This document shows positions 2,962 to 29,424 of a stretch of 64,000 nt of DNA, one piece after another. The DNA comes from Minisyncoccota bacterium (lineage in GTDB: Bacteria > Patescibacteriota > Minisyncoccia > Phycocordibacterales > UBA9973): positions 41,383 to 105,382 of the forward strand of contig JBAZSF010000001.1 in assembly GCA_041662525.1 (NCBI GenBank), written 5' to 3'. The notes beneath the pieces were generated by a model. That model made no database searches. It worked only from the letters and a program-made list of their open reading frames with translations, and was not told the DNA's origin. Position 1 is the first letter of the stretch; each line of letters opens with the position of its first letter. The position numbers and the translations under genes are program-made.

Positions 2962-3564
2962 TTATTGGTTGTTTTTGTATTTTCTAATTAAGAATAAAAT
3001 AATGGCCATTATTGAAGCCCCTATTACTGTCATTATCATGTCTTTTTGCCCGTCAAAAAGGTCTGTTGAGCCATAAAATGAAGCCGCCAGGACAGGATTG
3101 ACTGTCAGAGCAGCGATCAATTCAAAAATCTCATAAAGCCCTGAAAGCGCAAACATGGTGGAGAGGGTAATATAATAATTCCATCCGTTTTCTTTTTCAT
3201 AATTTTTATTGAAATGCGATACAATCTCTTGCATTGGGTAAAACACTAAAAAGCCAAAAGAAAAATGAACCAGTTTGTCATACATATTTATTGATGATCC
3301 GAACAGTCGCCCTATTTCATATCCGAAAGGCACCTGTGTCACTCCATAATGGGAGGTTATTAAGGGCAGCACAATATACACAAGCAAGAAAGTATAAGAA
3401 ATATTTGAGAGTTTTTTATAGCGTTCTAAAATAAAAAGTGCCACTATCGCCAATACTACTGGGATATTCTCCAGCGCCCAATAAGACAAAGATGGGGGAT
3501 TAATTCCCGACCAAATGAAAACTATAATAAAAATTACTAACAAAAATAATTTATATTTATTCAT
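2962..3564 (-). CDS. polytopic membrane protein, function unknown
   Basis: 200 aa with multiple hydrophobic helices; clean ORF convergent with dnaX. Confidence 0.5.
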   Translation of the reverse strand: MNKYKLFLLVIFIIVFIWSGINPPSLSYWALENIPVVLAIVALFILERYKKLSNISYTFLLVYIVLPLITSHYGVTQVPFGYEIGRLFGSSINMYDKLVHFSFGFLVFYPMQEIVSHFNKNYEKENGWNYYITLSTMFALSGLYEIFELIAALTVNPVLAASFYGSTDLFDGQKDMIMTVIGASIMAIILFLIRKYKNNQ

Positions 3565-3655
3565 ATCATTATTACCACGAAGTGCATAATATCTAATTAT
3601 ACTATGATTTTTAATTTTTTAAAAATGGCTTTAATGTCTGGTCTGGGTGCATAAT

Positions 3656-4111
3656 CTATCTGCCTACTATATATACTACTAGTAAAATAAGAGCTCCCCA
3701 CCATAAAATGTCGGATATGATAAAACTGATTATGATTTTATTTTGCCACGAAGAAGGTAAAAGTTCTTTTGAGCGTCCGTCTTTTTCGCGTTGCAGTAAA
3801 AATGGACTGACTTTAAAAGAAAGAAAATAGCCGTTGATTATTAACCCCAAAGCCATAAAAGCATGAATCATCGGTATGCCGGCAAACATAGAATCACGAT
3901 AAAGTATAATGCCACCAATAATTGCCAAAGTGACGCCTGTCCAAATTAAAGGCTTTGTCACTTTGTGGGTTCTTGTAGTCGCTTCCGTCCAATAAGAAGA
4001 TTTTCTCCCCAAGAAGCCATGAATATCTATTACAGTGACGGCCCCAAGACCAATAACAAAACCAGATATAAAAATAAATAATCCTAAAAAATCTAATGTT
4101 ATATATTCCAT
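3656..4111 (-). CDS. membrane protein, unknown function
   Basis: 151 aa with 4 predicted TM helices. Confidence 0.4.
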   Translation of the reverse strand: MEYITLDFLGLFIFISGFVIGLGAVTVIDIHGFLGRKSSYWTEATTRTHKVTKPLIWTGVTLAIIGGIILYRDSMFAGIPMIHAFMALGLIINGYFLSFKVSPFLLQREKDGRSKELLPSSWQNKIIISFIISDILWWGALILLVVYIVGR

Positions 4112-4136
4112 AGTTTATGAAAAGATTATATCATTT

Positions 4137-4385
4137 CTAACCCGTAGCGAGCACCACCCAAATAGCAACAAAGGCGAGAAAGACAACTGTGCCGATGACT
4201 ACTTGATATTTAGCAACTCGTCTTGTCACAAAAAGAATAGTAGTTGCCATGACTACCCAAAATACCCAAGCGAAGACGAATTCGTTCCAATTCCAATTCC
4301 AGCCTTCAACAAATTGATTTCCCAACAATGGAATAATTAGTGCTACTGTTGCCCAGCCCATAATTTTAAAAATCGAGTTCTTCAT
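4137..4385 (-). CDS. small membrane protein, unknown function
   Basis: 82 aa with 2-3 hydrophobic helices; follows the previous ORF on the same strand. Confidence 0.35.
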   Translation of the reverse strand: MKNSIFKIMGWATVALIIPLLGNQFVEGWNWNWNEFVFAWVFWVVMATTILFVTRRVAKYQVVIGTVVFLAFVAIWVVLATG

Positions 4386-4502: not shown

Positions 4503-4860
4503 ATGAAAGAACTAACTGAGGAAGAAAAAAGAGTAATAATAAACAAAGGCACAGAAGTACCGTTTACAGGTGAGTATGTTAACAATAAAGCAACCGGCGT
4601 TTATGTTTGTCGACAATGCGGGAATCCACTTTATAATTCCAAGGATAAATTTGAATCCAATTGTGGCTGGCCTTCTTTTGATGATGAGATACCTGGAGCA
4701 GTGCATAAGACTTTGGATGCCGATGGGAGTACGCACAGAGATAACTTGCACAAACTGCGGAGCACATTTGGGGCATTTGTTTATTGGTGAGCATTTAACT
4801 CCTAAAAACAAAAGATACTGCGTGAACTCTATTTCAATGAAATTTATACCCGGAAAATAG
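4503..4860 (+). pseudogene. msrB: peptide-methionine (R)-S-oxide reductase MsrB, disrupted by a +1 frameshift near 4727
   Basis: Frame 1 encodes the MsrB N-terminal half (PFTGEY...CRQCGNPLY...[10 protein letters not shown]...KTLDADGS). Frame 2 encodes the C-terminal half ([33 protein letters not shown]). Joining them needs removal of one nucleotide around agtAcgc. Confidence 0.6.
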
Positions 4861-4882
4861 TTTAATAAATTATTTTAAAAAT

Positions 4883-5371
4883 ATGATTAAAAAAATAGTA
4901 TTGGCGGGAGGATGTTTCTGGGGTCTTCAAGACTTGATAAGAAAACAAGCAGGCGTGGTGAAAACGCAGGTGGGCTATACAGGAGGAAAAGTTAAAAATG
5001 CAACATATGAAAATCATGAGGGGCATGCCGAGGCGGTAGAGATAGAATATGATACCGAAAAAACTTCTTATAAAAAAATGCTAGATTTTTTCTTTCAAAT
5101 ACACAATCCTACGACTATAAATCAGCAAGGGAATGATCGAGGAACTTCGTATCGTTCAGCAATATTTTACGGCAATGAGGAAGAAAAAAAGAAAGCAGAA
5201 AATTTCATAGATATCGTAAATAAATCAAAACGTTGGAAAGACCCTGTGGTTACAACACTGGAACCACTCTCTGATTTTTATCAAGCAGAAGAATACCATC
5301 AAGATTATCTACAGAAAAACCCAGGTGGCTATACTTGTCATGCTATTTATTTTGATAGTTATTTAAAATAG
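4883..5371 (+). CDS. msrA: peptide-methionine (S)-S-oxide reductase MsrA
   Basis: GCFWG active-site motif at the N-terminus; typical MsrA length. Confidence 0.9.
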
Positions 5372-5509: not shown

Positions 5510-5581
5510 GCTGGGAGACTAGGAATCGAACCTAGATTAAAGGCTTCAAAGGCCTCTGTCCTACCGTTAGACGATCTCCCA
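5510..5581 (-). tRNA. tRNA-Gln (anticodon UUG)
   Basis: Reverse complement folds as a cloverleaf: acceptor TGGGAGA/TCTCCCA, D-arm GTC-TAACGGTAG-GAC, anticodon stem GAGGC/GCCTT with loop CTTTGAA (UUG), T-arm CTAGG-TTCGATT-CCTAG, discriminator G. Confidence 0.8.
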
Positions 5582-5597: not shown

Positions 5598-5840
5598 CTA
5601 ATTAAACAGTTTTTTAAGAAATTTTCTTCCAGAAGCTGATTTTAAATACTTTTCACGCTTTCTGGCTTCTTTTAGACTATCATATTTTTCATTATATATC
5701 ATTGTCCAAGGACAATGACGTTTTGTGTAAAAACTCTTTCCAGAATTATGTTCTGCTAACCTACGATTTAAATTGTTTGTTATACCTACATAACTTTTCA
5801 AGGAAACTGTACTTTTTAATATATAAAGAAAATAATTCAT
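5598..5840 (-). CDS. GIY-YIG nuclease family protein (UPF0213/YhbQ-like)
   Basis: YILKS...YVGITNNLNRRLAEHN is the GIY-YIG motif; 80 aa. Confidence 0.8.
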   Translation of the reverse strand: MNYFLYILKSTVSLKSYVGITNNLNRRLAEHNSGKSFYTKRHCPWTMIYNEKYDSLKEARKREKYLKSASGRKFLKKLFN

Positions 5841-7513: not shown

Positions 7514-8035
7514 CTACACCTCCTTTCTATTTTTTCCGACAATTCTATCCAGCACGCCAACTGTCGTTGAATCATCAAGAACGTTCTTTAGAACAACAGC
7601 ATTAGCTCCTATTTTTACGTTAGAGCCAATTTTGATATTACCAAGGATTTTTGCTCCGGCTCCAACTTCAACATTATTGCCAAGAGTAGGATGCCTTTTA
7701 CCCTTTTCCTTCCCAGTTCCACCAAGGGTCGCTCCTTGATAAAGAAGACAATTATCTCCTATCTCGGCGGTTTCTCCTATGACCACACCCATTCCGTGGT
7801 CAATTACAAGCCCAACGCCTATCTTTGCCGCAGGATGAATTTCTATCCCAGTAAAAAATCTAACTAACTGGGACAGAATTCTTGCGCTTAGCTTCCAGTT
7901 TTTCATCCAAAGCCAGTGTGCAACGCGATGCCCAAGTATCGCATGTAATCCTGGGTAACATAGCAATACTTCTAAAACCGTCCGAGCTGCTGGATCCCTC
8001 TCAAAAATTGCACTTATATCCTTTGGTAATCTCAT
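7514..8035 (-). CDS. cysE: serine O-acetyltransferase
   Basis: N-terminal SAT region ([22 protein letters not shown]) plus hexapeptide repeats with IHPAAKIG...[18 protein letters not shown]. Confidence 0.85.
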
Positions 8036-8308
8036 ACTCTTAGTCCTCCCTTTATTTATTTATCAATTTACAAATTATATTTCTTAAAAAGAAACACCAG
8101 TCTTTTTAAAAGGCTGGTGTTTGGATTGTAGTTTTTAGAGATTATATTTACAGTTCAAAAATCAGCCTTTTAAATTAAAAGCTGAACAACAACAAACAAA
8201 CATAGTTGTGGAAGAAAAACTCTTTTGTATTACTTCTTCATTCATGATCAATGTATAGCATTTATCAAATTATATGTAAAGTGTTTCTGTTGGTGTTATA
8301 ATTAATTT

Positions 8309-9523
8309 ATGGAAAATAATGATTATAATATATGGCTTGAAGGAATAGAACGCGTAAAATATCCGCGAGATGTTTTGCCTGATGAGATAGAGACTTTAAT
8401 CGTGGGCGGAGGTATTACTGGAATAACTTGCGCATATTTACTGGCCAAAGATGGAAGACAAGTAGTTTTACTAGAAAAAAGAAAATTGGGAGAATGGATA
8501 ACCTACTGCACTACAGGTTTTTTGACGCAAGTGATAGACACAGATCCAGTTAGATTAATAAAATTATTCGGGGAAGAAAAAGCTCGTCTCATTTTCGCCT
8601 CACATCTAGAGGCCATAAATAATATAGAGAATATAATAAAATCTGAAATGATTGAATGCGAATTTAAACGTTGCAGTGATTATGTTTATGCCAACAGTAA
8701 AAAAGAAGAGAAAAAGCTTATAAAAATGGCAGAAACCTTCAAAAAGTTGAACGTAAAATGCGAATATAAAAAAGATAATAATTTAAACTTCTCCAAGTTT
8801 GGTTATATTGAAATGCCCAACCAGGCAAAATTTCACGTGATGAAATATCTAACTGCTTTGGCTAAAATAGCGAACGAACATGGCGCGATAATAGCTGAAG
8901 ACACAGAAGTTTTGAGCTTAAATGATAAAAAGGATTTTGTGGAGGTTGTAGTAAAAGATGTCGGAACCATAAAAGCCCGAAAAGTTTTTTCAGCCACCCA
9001 TAACCCTTTTGGGAAGCCATCTCATCTAATACATAAAATAAATACATATCGCACCTATGTTCTAGAATATAATATTCCGGTAAATTCTATTGTTGAGGCC
9101 ACCTATGAGGACAGTTTAAAACCATATCATTATTTTAGAATTGACCCGAAAAATGGTTTTGATAGAATGATTATCGGCGGTGCAGATCACTTAAATGTGA
9201 TTCAGATGAACAGGGAATTAAATTTCGAGACAATGAGAAATTATGTAAAAGAAATATTCAGAAAGACGTTTGAATATTCAGGCCTTGAAGAGATGCGCCA
9301 TTGGTCCGGAGTTATATTAGAGCCAGTCGATGGAATTGCTTTTCTAGGGGAATTAAAAGATAGTAATATTTTCCAAGCTTTTGCTTTTTCAGGAAATGGG
9401 ATGACTTATAGTTACATCGCTAGTAAAATCTTTTTTGATAAACTAACTTCACAAAAAAATATTTATACAGAAATTTATGATATCAAACGTAAAATTTCAT
9501 GGAGAGCAAATATCTTTGGTTAA
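8309..9523 (+). CDS. FAD-dependent oxidoreductase (DAO / glycine-oxidase-like family)
   Basis: N-terminal dinucleotide fold LIVGGGITGITCAYLLAKDGRQVVLLEK; ~400 aa. Confidence 0.7.
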   Translation: MENNDYNIWLEGIERVKYPRDVLPDEIETLIVGGGITGITCAYLLAKDGRQVVLLEKRKLGEWITYCTTGFLTQVIDTDPVRLIKLFGEEKARLIFASHLEAINNIENIIKSEMIECEFKRCSDYVYANSKKEEKKLIKMAETFKKLNVKCEYKKDNNLNFSKFGYIEMPNQAKFHVMKYLTALAKIANEHGAIIAEDTEVLSLNDKKDFVEVVVKDVGTIKARKVFSATHNPFGKPSHLIHKINTYRTYVLEYNIPVNSIVEATYEDSLKPYHYFRIDPKNGFDRMIIGGADHLNVIQMNRELNFETMRNYVKEIFRKTFEYSGLEEMRHWSGVILEPVDGIAFLGELKDSNIFQAFAFSGNGMTYSYIASKIFFDKLTSQKNIYTEIYDIKRKISWRANIFG

Positions 9524-9540
9524 AATTACGAAACTTGTTG

Positions 9541-9825
9541 CAGGCGTACTTTTTAGAAAGCCTTGCGCAGGCGGACGCGCCGAGCAGTTCGCTGGCGAAG
9601 CTTCGCCAGATAGATTGCTTTATAAAAAGTTATGCCAAGAAAGAGTTTCGTAATTAGATCTGAATTAAGAAACATAAACTTTTCTTCGGTACAGATTTTT
9701 TGAAGCTTAAAAAATCCTGCACGCCCCGCCAAAGGCGAGGCTCCGCCCAAAGGCGGGCCGAGGGAAGTTCTCGGCTCGACAGCCTACGAAACCCCGCAAA
9801 AAGTTATGTTTCTTAATTCAGGATG
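9541..9825. repeat. composite GC-rich structured element: 18-bp perfect palindrome (9592-9609), 18-bp terminal inverted repeats CTGAATTAAGAAACATAA (9660-9677 / 9804-9821) enclosing GC-rich hairpins, and direct repeat AAAAAGTTATG (9624 / 9798)
   Basis: ctggcgaagcttcgccag is a perfect palindrome. gatctgaattaagaaacataa and its reverse complement (ttatgtttcttaattcagga) flank a core containing ccgcccaaaggcgg and ccgagggaagttctcgg hairpins. The local GC content is far above the genome background. Confidence 0.55.
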
Positions 9826-9838
9826 TTATACTTAAAAA

Positions 9839-10927
9839 ATGTTTTTCATAGACCCCATTCGTAATTTTTATGGCAGGTTTGAACGGCCCATTTCATCTAT
9901 ATCCCTTGTTGGGGGTTTCGTTTTTGATGCTCTCACGCTCAAGCGCTTGGATACCCTTTGGGAGAATTTATGGGTTTTAGGTCACCTTCTTATTGTTGGA
10001 ATTTTTATTACTTTAATTCATCTGCACGAAAACGAAGTTGGTGGTGAAAAAAATCCTCAAAAAGCGCATTTCTGGTATGTGAATATTTTACAGTTTTTCT
10101 TTGGGGGAATTCTCTCGACTTATTTAGTTTTCTATTTTCGTAGTGCCGATATCTTTGTCACTTGGCCTTTTATTGTTCTCCTTGTTGGTGCTTTTATCGC
10201 CAATGAATCTTTAAAACGACATTACATCAGGCTTAGTTTTCAAATAAGCTTATTTTTTCTTTCGATTTACTCATTTGCCATTTTTTTAGTACCTGTAATT
10301 TTACACAAGATTGGCACCTGGGTATTTCTACTTTCAGGATTTCTTAGTTTAATTTTTATTGTCCTATTTCTTAAAATCTTATTTCACTTTATCAAAGATA
10401 AATTTAAAGAGAGTAAAAGATTGATAATTTCTTTAATTTTGGGGATTTTTATTTTAATTAATTTTCTATATTTTACCAATTTAATTCCTCCGATTCCTTT
10501 GTCTTTAAAAGATGCGGGGATGTATCACTCAATCCAAAAAAATACAGAAGGGAACTACGATATTACTTTTGAAGATTATGGCTGGAAAGGATACTTCAAT
10601 TTATATCCAGGATTTAAACAAGTTTCTGGAGAGCCCGTTTATGCTTTTAGCGCTATTTTCTCTCCAAAAAAACTAAACCTCACAATCATTCACGAATGGC
10701 AACATTATGATGAAAATGAAAAGAACTGGGTGACTGAAAGAATAATAAATCTACCCGTCATAGGCGGGCGAGATGGTGGTTTCCGTACTTATTCTATGCG
10801 TTACAACTTAGCCCTAGGAAAATGGAGGGTAAATGTAAAAACCCAACAAGGTCAAACTATTGGGGTTTTAAGATTTAAAATTATAGAAGCAGATACAGAA
10901 CCTATGCTTACTGCTGGGGTAAAATAG
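9839..10927 (+). CDS. polytopic membrane protein with extracytoplasmic C-terminal domain, function unknown
   Basis: 362 aa; ~6 TM helices in the first 220 aa, then a soluble domain. Confidence 0.5.
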   Translation: MFFIDPIRNFYGRFERPISSISLVGGFVFDALTLKRLDTLWENLWVLGHLLIVGIFITLIHLHENEVGGEKNPQKAHFWYVNILQFFFGGILSTYLVFYFRSADIFVTWPFIVLLVGAFIANESLKRHYIRLSFQISLFFLSIYSFAIFLVPVILHKIGTWVFLLSGFLSLIFIVLFLKILFHFIKDKFKESKRLIISLILGIFILINFLYFTNLIPPIPLSLKDAGMYHSIQKNTEGNYDITFEDYGWKGYFNLYPGFKQVSGEPVYAFSAIFSPKKLNLTIIHEWQHYDENEKNWVTERIINLPVIGGRDGGFRTYSMRYNLALGKWRVNVKTQQGQTIGVLRFKIIEADTEPMLTAGVK

Positions 10928-19551: not shown

Positions 19552-19553
19552 AA

Positions 19554-29358: not shown

Positions 29359-29378
29359 TAACAGGTGAGACTATCGAA

Positions 29379-29424
29379 AGGCCAGCATGCTCCGGGAGGA
29401 AGTGTGCTGGCCTAATTTGTTTTA
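29379..29424 (+). terminator. rho-independent terminator
   Basis: aggccagca-(17)-tgctggcct followed by aatttgtttta. Confidence 0.6.

Follow-up and report, generated by a model that had tools for sequence, protein, structure and literature searches.

Introduction

The genomes of CPR bacteria (Patescibacteria) are very small and are usually called streamlined. Classical MITEs end at defined positions, duplicate their target site to a fixed length (TA in the case of Correia) and are accompanied by a related insertion sequence. Integron attC sites are defined by RYYYAAC and GTTRRRY core sites, are arranged in cassette arrays, need an integrase and are poorly conserved in sequence. For the RPEs, the palindromic repeats of Rickettsia, we know of no transposase. 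RPEs are non-coding palindromic repeats of 100-150 nt that fall into several diverged subfamilies in the reduced Rickettsia genome, and they insert in intergenic DNA as well as in-frame in housekeeping genes, where they add a peptide and the protein is not destroyed (PMC10969869). In-place inversion has been reported for Correia elements, and clustering and nesting of different repeat types for pneumococcus (PMC10969869). Our full-text literature searches returned no descriptions of palindromic repeats or MITEs in CPR/Patescibacteria.

Here, we analyzed a 315-nt non-coding stretch between two genes within a 64-kb stretch of DNA, hereafter the window. Judged by its genes and relatives, the window comes from a Candidatus Paceibacterota (CPR) bacterium. 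The original prediction viewed most of this stretch (9541-9825) as one composite element, either a MITE-like insertion or a structured non-coding RNA. Our analysis indicates that the region is very probably made up of short palindromic repeats, nested and clustered, which are non-coding and non-autonomous and belong to a superfamily dispersed in Candidatus Paceibacterota (CPR) genomes. The sequences used for comparison, designated by L numbers, were metagenome assemblies throughout.

Results

Architecture of the spacer

The spacer separates a gene for an FAD-dependent oxidoreductase (8309-9523, + strand; Pfam DAO) from a gene for a DUF2914 membrane protein (9839-10927, + strand), both lying outside the elements. 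The window has a GC content of 34%, and the region 9541-9825 is its sole stretch exceeding 58% GC when scanned in 80-nt windows. The region has a calculated folding energy of -124.4 kcal/mol, corresponding to z-scores against shuffled sequence of -8.5 (+ strand) and -6.8 (minus strand). Repeat analysis and folding resolved two tandem modules, each closed by a stem: an A-type palindromic element of ~130 nt on the + strand (9524-9655) and a B-type palindromic element that runs convergently to it on the minus strand (9660-9821). A GC-rich twin-hairpin insertion of 45 nt (9720-9764) is nested in B. The modules are bordered by two short + strand segments that are common to the related locus L038: the segment between the end of the homology to L004 and element A (9494-9523), which encodes a replaced C-terminal tail of the oxidoreductase, and the spacer from B to the DUF2914 start codon (9822-9838). 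The final ~10 codons of the oxidoreductase gene (KISWRANIFG) are unlike those of L004, where the oxidoreductase gene overlaps the next gene.

Every repeat and hairpin described in the original prediction was found at its position, but their grouping into units had to be revised. The 18-nt inverted repeat CTGAATTAAGAAACATAA (9660-9677) has its exact reverse complement at 9804-9821, and the pairing reaches 24 nt with one bulge (9660-9683/9798-9821). The perfect 18-nt palindrome CTGGCGAAGCTTCGCCAG (9592-9609) and the hairpins ccgcccaaaggcgg (9743-9756) and ccgagggaagttctcgg (9758-9774) are likewise present. The 11-nt direct repeat AAAAAGTTATG does occur at 9624 and 9798, but it does not flank the inverted repeats: the copy at 9624 is part of module A's 3' arm, and that at 9798 is part of module B's inverted repeat. 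What had been read as a target-site duplication is the conserved inner closing stem common to A and B. The upstream stem-closed module, with arms at 9524-9554 and 9625-9655, had been overlooked, and the 18-nt palindrome belongs to it. Instead of one element with 18-bp terminal repeats, the region thus contains three units, namely A, an inverted B and the GC twin hairpin within B. The elements (~130 nt for A, ~100-160 nt for B) contain only spurious ORFs that span two units. The 65-aa minus-strand ORF at 9553-9750, already called improbable in the original prediction, is one of these and is spurious because it spans two different repeat units.

Fold and conservation of the A-type element

The A-type element has a conserved core (9531-9648) enclosed by the outer arms AATTACG (9524-9530) and CGTAATT (9649-9655). 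It is predicted to fold into a long closing stem leading to a three-way junction, in which the window copy pairs the arms 9524-9536 and 9643-9655. The covariance model built for A (R1) scored 156.8 bits on the + strand of the window versus 35.5 bits on the minus strand. The P2 hairpin (9563-9587, + strand), UUGC-GCA-GGCG-GACG-CGCC-GA-GCAG, includes an internal loop and carries the superfamily core GGCNGNNGNGCCGAG at 9570-9584. The P3 hairpin (9592-9609, + strand) is identical with the 18-nt palindrome. The junction strands on either side of P3, UUCG (9588-9591, + strand) and AUAGAUU (9610-9616, + strand), are invariant in all 17 aligned copies.

The alignment of the A copies agrees closely with this fold: 95.7% of the cells are paired, and sliding the partners by 1-3 columns lowers the figure to 34-50%. 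Changes on both sides were found for 21 of the 45 pairs, compared with 11.9±1.3 in shuffles. In P3, five of the seven pairs are changed on both sides (e.g., GGCG/CGCC versus CCGC/GCGG), and covarying pairs of P2 include columns 46:67 (GC in 10 copies, UA in 7) and 55:60 (CG in 7, UA in 7, GC in 3). The mean entropy of unpaired columns was 0.173 versus 0.395 for paired ones, that is, the paired positions vary more. The P2 tip is replaced by a long extension in 3-4 copies. G·U cells outnumber A·C cells by 49 to 8, from which it follows that selection acts on the fold of one strand only, which in the window is the + strand. Judged from the alignments, the compensatory changes and the one-strand excess of G·U show a single-stranded fold to be under selection, and the strong, strand-specific covariation bears out the original view that a real, conserved structure exists at this locus.

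The B-type element, its nested insertion and its relation to A

The B-type element, read on the minus strand, uses the 18/24-nt inverted repeat as its closing stem and contains a P2 core, GGCTGTCGAGCCGAG, at 9770-9784 (minus strand) and an AU-rich P3 hairpin at 9692-9719. Against the window, the corresponding model (R2) scored 116.6 bits for the minus strand and 21.6 bits for the + strand. The window copy could be aligned with five other B copies, among them the orthologous one in L038 (at 9865-9981 there), and all six have the three-way architecture and show compensatory changes; the count of G·U against A·C cells is 17:0. The 45-nt insertion at 9720-9764, CACGCCCCGCCAAAGGCGAGGCTCCGCCCAAAGGCGGGCCGAGGG, is missing in five of the five other B copies, including the L038 orthologue. 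Both the GC island and the two GC-rich hairpins reported earlier stem from this insertion, and the proposed GC-rich "multi-helix junction" is largely this insertion and not a shared part of B. The arms of the elements are 24-31 nt long and 74-92% complementary, and they are kept across copies while the outermost bases vary.

The two element types recognize each other in model searches. R1 also matches B on the minus strand (9665-9817, 20.2 bits), and R2 also detects A copies on the strand on which A is folded. The motif GGCNGNNGNGCCGAG occurs only twice in the window, in A on the + strand and in B on the minus strand, with 0.06 matches expected. Moreover, the copy in L044 is a chimera of A-type arms and a B-type interior; it occupies a spacer with dnaA on one side and, on the other, a short ORF that precedes the gene for the RNase P protein. 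The mutual detection, the common core and this chimera identify A and B as modular members of one superfamily. On sequence grounds, A and B are diverged members of this superfamily with a common AU-rich closing stem, three-way junction and GGCNGNNGNGCCGAG.

Dispersal of the elements

The translated spurious minus-strand ORF served as the probe for the metagenome search and led to 22 contigs. Their loci match 9522-9656 at 83-96% identity over 110-134 nt, the flanks are unrelated, and the element occurs in either orientation. The neighbors of A, named by eye from their translations, are housekeeping genes such as those for DnaE (DNA polymerase III alpha), release factors (RF1), ribosomal proteins (L31), FtsZ, UvrD, ribonucleotide reductase and others. 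The distance of A elements to the nearest gene end is 0-40 nt, all orientations occur, and five of the copies are antisense to both neighbors, which are unrelated housekeeping genes. None of the genes next to the A copies has an orthologue in the window. Together with B-type copies in several relatives, we counted more than 35 copies in more than 30 contigs. Loci of at most 64 kb are the basis from which we extrapolate to copies per genome. Two copies each were present at seven loci with lengths of 2-21 kb (L024, L028, L029, L034, L038, L040 and L045), and none at four related ones with lengths of 7-21 kb. The 64 kb of the window contain one A and one B only, as found by blast, by pattern searches with 3 mismatches and by both covariance models. 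The inverted repeat CTGAATTAAGAAACATAA matched only its own two arms in the 64 kb at up to 3 mismatches. A weak match at 29374-29417 was dismissed as an ordinary terminator-like hairpin.

Comparison with close relatives revealed the insertions directly. In L004, whose DUF2914 protein is 87% identical, there is no spacer, and the oxidoreductase and DUF2914 genes overlap. The closer relative L038/L039 (90% identical), seen in two independent assemblies, has a 142-nt spacer with B only, shorter than the B of the window; the flanks of this spacer and the altered tail of the oxidoreductase agree with those of the window. Relative to L038, the window has gained module A beside B and the 45-nt piece at 9720-9764 inside B. 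The stretch is hence absent from one relative and partly present in another, which is evidence for insertion. The original suggestion of a MITE-like insertion was right in that this is inserted DNA and consists of small palindromic repeats, non-coding and found again in many other genomes; it did not hold as regards a single element.

Similar differences were seen at other junctions. The junction between purQ and purF, names inferred from Pfam matches to GATase_5 and GATase_6/7, is empty in the window (19552-19553, 2 nt between the genes) and in L041, and it is filled by B-type elements in opposite orientations in L038 (minus strand) and L040 (+ strand). Between genes resembling UMP kinase and methionine aminopeptidase (assigned by eye from translations), L016 and L020 carry A in opposite orientations; the A elements are 93.8% identical and the flanks 69.6%. 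The non-orthologous B copies of L038 and L040 are 92% identical, compared with 76-84% for the surrounding genes. Within these assemblies, the units are thus shown to be gained or lost between close relatives and to recur at unrelated sites in both orientations.

Insertions within genes

The DUF2914 gene of L040 contains a complete B-type element in-frame, so that the predicted protein has 391 aa versus 362 (+29 aa); the inserted peptide reads ...SRNITFRRGFEADEPRTSGFFKLQKIRTEEKFMF... Twin hairpins of the form TCCGCC-NNN-GGCGGA, similar to the one nested in the window's B, are found as 30-nt in-frame gene insertions in L033 and in L041, in the latter within the DUF2914 gene. In L034, the PcrA/UvrD gene encodes 40 aa at a place occupied by 7 in the solved PcrA structure, a gain of ~33 aa, and the insert coincides exactly with a family match at 4146-4280 (44 bits) containing GGCTGAGGAGCCGAG. 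At several loci, the upstream gene takes its last codons from the element, or a start codon called too far out draws the element into an ORF. These predicted reading frames show that the repeats can sit in-frame inside genes and are tolerated there, the genes staying intact.

Ends and target sites

The elements have the conserved ends GAAAC...GTTTC, and the next 3-13 bp vary between copies yet stay complementary. At several sites, the outer bases are inverted copies of the native flanking sequence, as in L040 (AGTTATTTTAC...GTAAAATAACT) and L038 (AAATACTTTAC...GTAAAGTATTT); in L016, 11 bp are inverted, covering the region around the start codon of the methionine aminopeptidase gene. Some of the target sites are AT-rich quasi-palindromes, such as TTATTTT-AA-AAAATAA in the window and TAAATTTA elsewhere. 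A consistent target-site duplication was absent from four comparisons of filled and empty sites, in which the junctions are blurred by ~10-25% divergence. These comparisons gave at most AT-rich palindromic duplications of 2-5 bp (AATTA; AT) with inconsistent lengths, and the flanks were more often inverted copies of each other than duplicated. Pfam searches of 64 ORFs from the window, each 90 aa or longer, detected no transposase, integrase, reverse transcriptase or HUH enzyme, nor did we see one beside any copy examined, and no autonomous element with the same arms appeared among these ORFs or in the neighborhoods of the copies.

Searches against known families

Rfam models applied to the whole window at gathering thresholds detected one tRNA only, and at E<=10 the region 9450-9900 gave just two chance microRNA matches; no known RNA was recognized at the elements of four related loci either. 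Phage, plasmid and viral collections yielded nothing beyond chance AT-rich matches of 18-23 nt. A five-frame chimeric translation of A, used as a query against the protein database, had no match, and this result is uninformative. The in-frame B peptide retrieved only 11 short spurious ORFs; entry P0021 contains this query exactly and was missed, so the index is insensitive to such short queries.

Several known families were considered and rejected on individual features. The CAGG...AGCAG motif reminiscent of signal recognition particle RNA has its GG paired with CC in a covarying hairpin, and Rfam was silent. A hammerhead ribozyme was suggested by CUGACGA, which is present in some copies only and lies within the covarying tip of P2 (CGGACGC in the window); the hammerhead invariants CUGANGA and GAAA are missing from the junction strands (C, UUCG and AUAGAUU). 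Integron attC sites were discarded on account of the absent defining core sites and cassette array: the ends are GAAAC...GTTTC plus variable bases, the copies are isolated, and no integrase was detected among the 64 ORFs of the window searched against Pfam. IS200/IS605 and REP/RAYT elements were rejected likewise, the 5' flanks of 17 copies having no common motif and the same 64 ORFs no match to a Y1/HUH enzyme.

Discussion

The arrangement in the window can be explained by successive insertions. A B-type element would have entered the oxidoreductase/DUF2914 junction first, on the minus strand. In the lineage of the window, the 45-nt GC-rich twin hairpin would then have been inserted into B and an A-type element beside B on the + strand, each of these before or after the other. 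In single-stranded form, every unit presumably adopts a structure with a three-way junction on a long, AU-rich closing stem, a one-strand fold that selection appears to have preserved. Our best guess is that the folded single strand, either ssDNA or a transcript, is the form recognized by the copying machinery. The random orientation with respect to host genes argues against a cis-acting RNA role and is compatible with an ssDNA or RNA intermediate.

The outermost pairs of the stem are probably built in part from flanking DNA. The likely cause is that the long hairpin promotes template switching during replication, which would extend the quasi-palindrome; the perfection of quasi-palindromes by template switching is a well-established process. 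Insertion into AT-rich palindromic DNA may thus be followed or accompanied by template-switch perfection of the long hairpin. In-place flipping of an element could occur via template switching or by recombination between its arms.

We weighed four other explanations against this reading. The units might be genes for a family of small structured RNAs, trans-acting or protein-bound, that were multiplied by duplication, with the three-way junction and its invariant strands as functional RNA. The strong covariation, the strand-specific excess of G·U over A·C and the higher conservation of unpaired junction columns than of paired ones (0.173 versus 0.395) would all be expected of such RNAs, and the P2-tip extensions in 3-4 copies recall the variable stems of real RNAs. 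However, the orientation is random (among co-directional gene pairs, ~7 A copies are sense and 5 antisense, and 2 B copies sense and 4 antisense), copies abut or overlap coding regions and occur in-frame inside ORFs, no conserved promoter or terminator surrounds them, Rfam is silent, and the element is wholly missing in the close relatives L004, L041, L042 and L043. We therefore consider RNA genes unlikely, and the narrower original proposal of a single structured ncRNA gene lacks support in a sequence with no Rfam match whose flanking genes and orientation vary and of which some copies lie inside genes. Co-option by the host, as a terminator, RNA stabilizer or insulator that replaces translational coupling between the oxidoreductase and DUF2914 genes, seems to us very unlikely. 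Elements do directly follow stop codons at many loci, and in L019, L023 and L037 an A-run before and a T-run after the stem resemble two-way terminators; MITEs elsewhere in bacteria affect mRNA stability and termination (PMC10969869). In the window, however, no T-run follows A or B, a terminator scan was blank at their ends, and B is antisense. Furthermore, the insertion is recent and missing in relatives, and therefore it cannot be required.

The position directly upstream of the DUF2914 gene and the high degree of structure could also point to a cis-regulatory leader or riboswitch controlling that gene. The comparative data refute this, leaving it next to no probability: the DUF2914 genes of L004, L040, L041, L042 and L043 have no such leader, the same elements stand before or after unrelated genes in either orientation, and half of the structure (B) is on the opposite strand. 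Similarly, the repeats behind the idea of one classical MITE do exist, namely terminal inverted repeats of 18 bp and AAAAAGTTATG as the supposed 11-bp target-site duplication. The 11-mer at 9798 is nonetheless part of the inverted repeat and that at 9624 part of another element, both are the conserved inner stem of all family members, and L038 has B without the upstream copy. These observations refute the single MITE, which we regard as hardly conceivable. The reading as a nested cluster of dispersed palindromic repeats accounts for the locus better than any of these explanations.

An invariant junction and a strand-specific fold are needless for a purely selfish dsDNA transposon, and a function of the A and B units at the level of the host or of RNA is therefore possible. 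A more speculative idea, to which we assign only an outside chance, is that the three-way junction (UUCG, AUAGAUU and the GCA/GA loop of P2) with its fold selected on one strand in whatever genomic context, is the active part of a new self-propagating nucleic acid, an RNA or ssDNA that recruits a host enzyme or is self-catalytic and copies itself into AT-rich palindromic sites, or else that the units are a widespread, protein-binding small RNA of CPR bacteria that is also mobile.

As dispersed repeats, the elements would be selfish DNA that remodels CPR genomes: they nest, flip, reshape gene ends and enter essential genes, as in the DNA-repair helicase and the membrane protein. In this, the CPR bacteria parallel Rickettsia, another lineage with reduced genomes. 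The repeats also cause spurious small ORFs and over-extended gene starts in annotation, may break or mis-join metagenome assemblies, and could serve as markers for strain-level population studies. Their strand-specific fold, supported by covariation, offers a defined target for tracing the mobilizing machinery.

Comparison with known systems

Among the described systems, attC sites resemble the elements as imperfect palindromes of 60-140 nt that act as folded single strands and conserve structure more than stem sequence. The CPR elements differ from them in being 83-96% identical, whereas attC sites are poorly conserved. With REP/BIME, IS200/IS605 and RAYT systems they would share a hairpin of one strand as the recognized form, as well as the apparent lack of a target-site duplication, and the GC twin hairpins nested in B are comparable to REP doublets in size. 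In contrast to these systems, there is no conserved tetranucleotide 5' of the hairpins, no TnpA or RAYT was detected among the window ORFs searched, and the three-way junction is unlike REP. The likeness to Correia of Neisseria and ERIC of enterobacteria is considerable, for these are also small and AT-rich, have imperfect long inverted arms, lie in intergenic DNA near gene ends and have transcripts that fold into stable stem-loops. The CPR units are small and non-coding, possess terminal inverted repeats and occur in many dispersed copies with insertion polymorphism, as expected of MITEs. They deviate from classical MITEs in that their ends are fuzzy and the conserved part is the interior junction, not the termini.

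The RPEs offer a close parallel, being small, non-coding and palindromic like A and B; the in-frame cases in CPR bacteria are the B-type element in DUF2914 of L040 and the related element in PcrA/UvrD of L034. The host phylum is unrelated, the likeness proposed is one of behavior and functional class, and most of the CPR copies seen are intergenic rather than intragenic. The CPR elements are further set apart by a documented three-way junction with invariant strands and strand-specific covariation; we know of no comparable analysis of junction and covariation for RPEs. Given the behavior typical of RPEs and MITEs, the lack of an Rfam match, the disagreement with the motifs of other families and the lack of a previous description in CPR bacteria, A, the inverted B and the nested twin hairpin very likely represent a new family within an established class of elements, MITE/RPE-like palindromic elements of CPR bacteria.

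Variant and chimeric elements

In four copies of the palindromic A-type element (L026 609-786, L033 1599-1783, L036 2974-3151 and L024 1174-1334), the tip of P2, one of the two hairpins of the three-way junction, was swapped for an AU-rich extension of ~50-60 nt, GGAGATTAGAAAATAAAG...CTATTATTTTCTTGAT. These copies are a subfamily in which the variable arm has expanded. A chimeric element that combines A-type arms with a B-type interior was located at L044 9975-10114. On one side of it lies dnaA and on the other a short ORF that precedes the RNase P protein gene; this spacer is probably the region of the replication origin. Another diverged subtype, GAACCCTTGGGAGGAGCGACGGCGACGGACAGAG..., was found on the minus strand at L029 1212-1335, where the element provides the last ~20 codons of an upstream ORF of 344 aa, presumably an Lrp/AsnC-type regulator.

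Placement and orientation of the repeats

In the metagenome locus L045, a B-type element (7956-8079) separates the smpB stop codon from the tmRNA gene (8084-8482; Rfam RF00023, 117.9 bits), wedged exactly between the two. The second copy at this locus (4802-4929) has an antisense orientation relative to both neighbouring genes. The C-terminus of the oxidoreductase reads ...KRKISWRANIFG in the window (gene at 8309-9523) and in its relative L038, the new tail in the window being encoded by ~30 nt (9494-9523). In the relative L004, the oxidoreductase (3001-4197) ends in ...KRNVFHTPNS, and the gene overlaps the start of the DUF2914 gene.

The loci L016 and L020 share a site at which the orientations are opposite. 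A 12-nt fragment at L020 ~437-450, GAAACTCTTTCT, which is the exact complement of the A 3' end, lies immediately upstream of a complete A element, and L016 carries the A element inverted at the site of this fragment. The fragment looks like either the remnant of an opposite-orientation copy or the product of a template switch.

Annotation artefacts and neighbouring features

Gene callers place short ORFs of 37-62 aa inside the repeats, such as 9477-9653 (+) and 9553-9750 (-) in the window and the database proteins P0121-P0131, and also push the starts of downstream genes into the repeats, as in starts reading LLYKK.... These ORFs and extended starts are annotation artefacts, usable as handles to find further copies.

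The only nuclease-like gene near the window repeats is a small stand-alone ORF with a GIY-YIG nuclease domain (80 aa, ~5598-5840, minus strand), which adjoins the tRNA at 5511-5581 and was also found in the relative L042; we found no link between this ORF and the repeats. Within the purine-synthesis gene cluster of the window, a GC-rich hairpin is followed by a T-run (AAAGGCCAGCATGC...GTGCTGGCCTAATTTGTTTT, 29374-29417). We rejected this ordinary structure as a relative of the repeats, and it is probably an intrinsic terminator.

Twin GC-rich hairpins

The third type of repeat is tiny: GC-rich twin hairpins, TCCGCC-NNN-GGCGGA twice, spanning 30 nt. A 45-nt version (9720-9764) is nested in the window B element, and a single hairpin lies at L028 ~1445-1465, within a B element, in the loop of hairpin P3. 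An FtsQ-like gene, named by a faint match to Pfam POTRA_1, has another copy at its end (L041 2852-2880). Two copies are in-frame insertions of exactly 10 codons: one in the DUF2914 gene (L041 10609-10638), encoding SALGGSASGG, and one in the UvrC gene (L033 681-710), encoding SARGGSAFGG, the latter corresponding to a gap in the solved UvrC structure 3c65.
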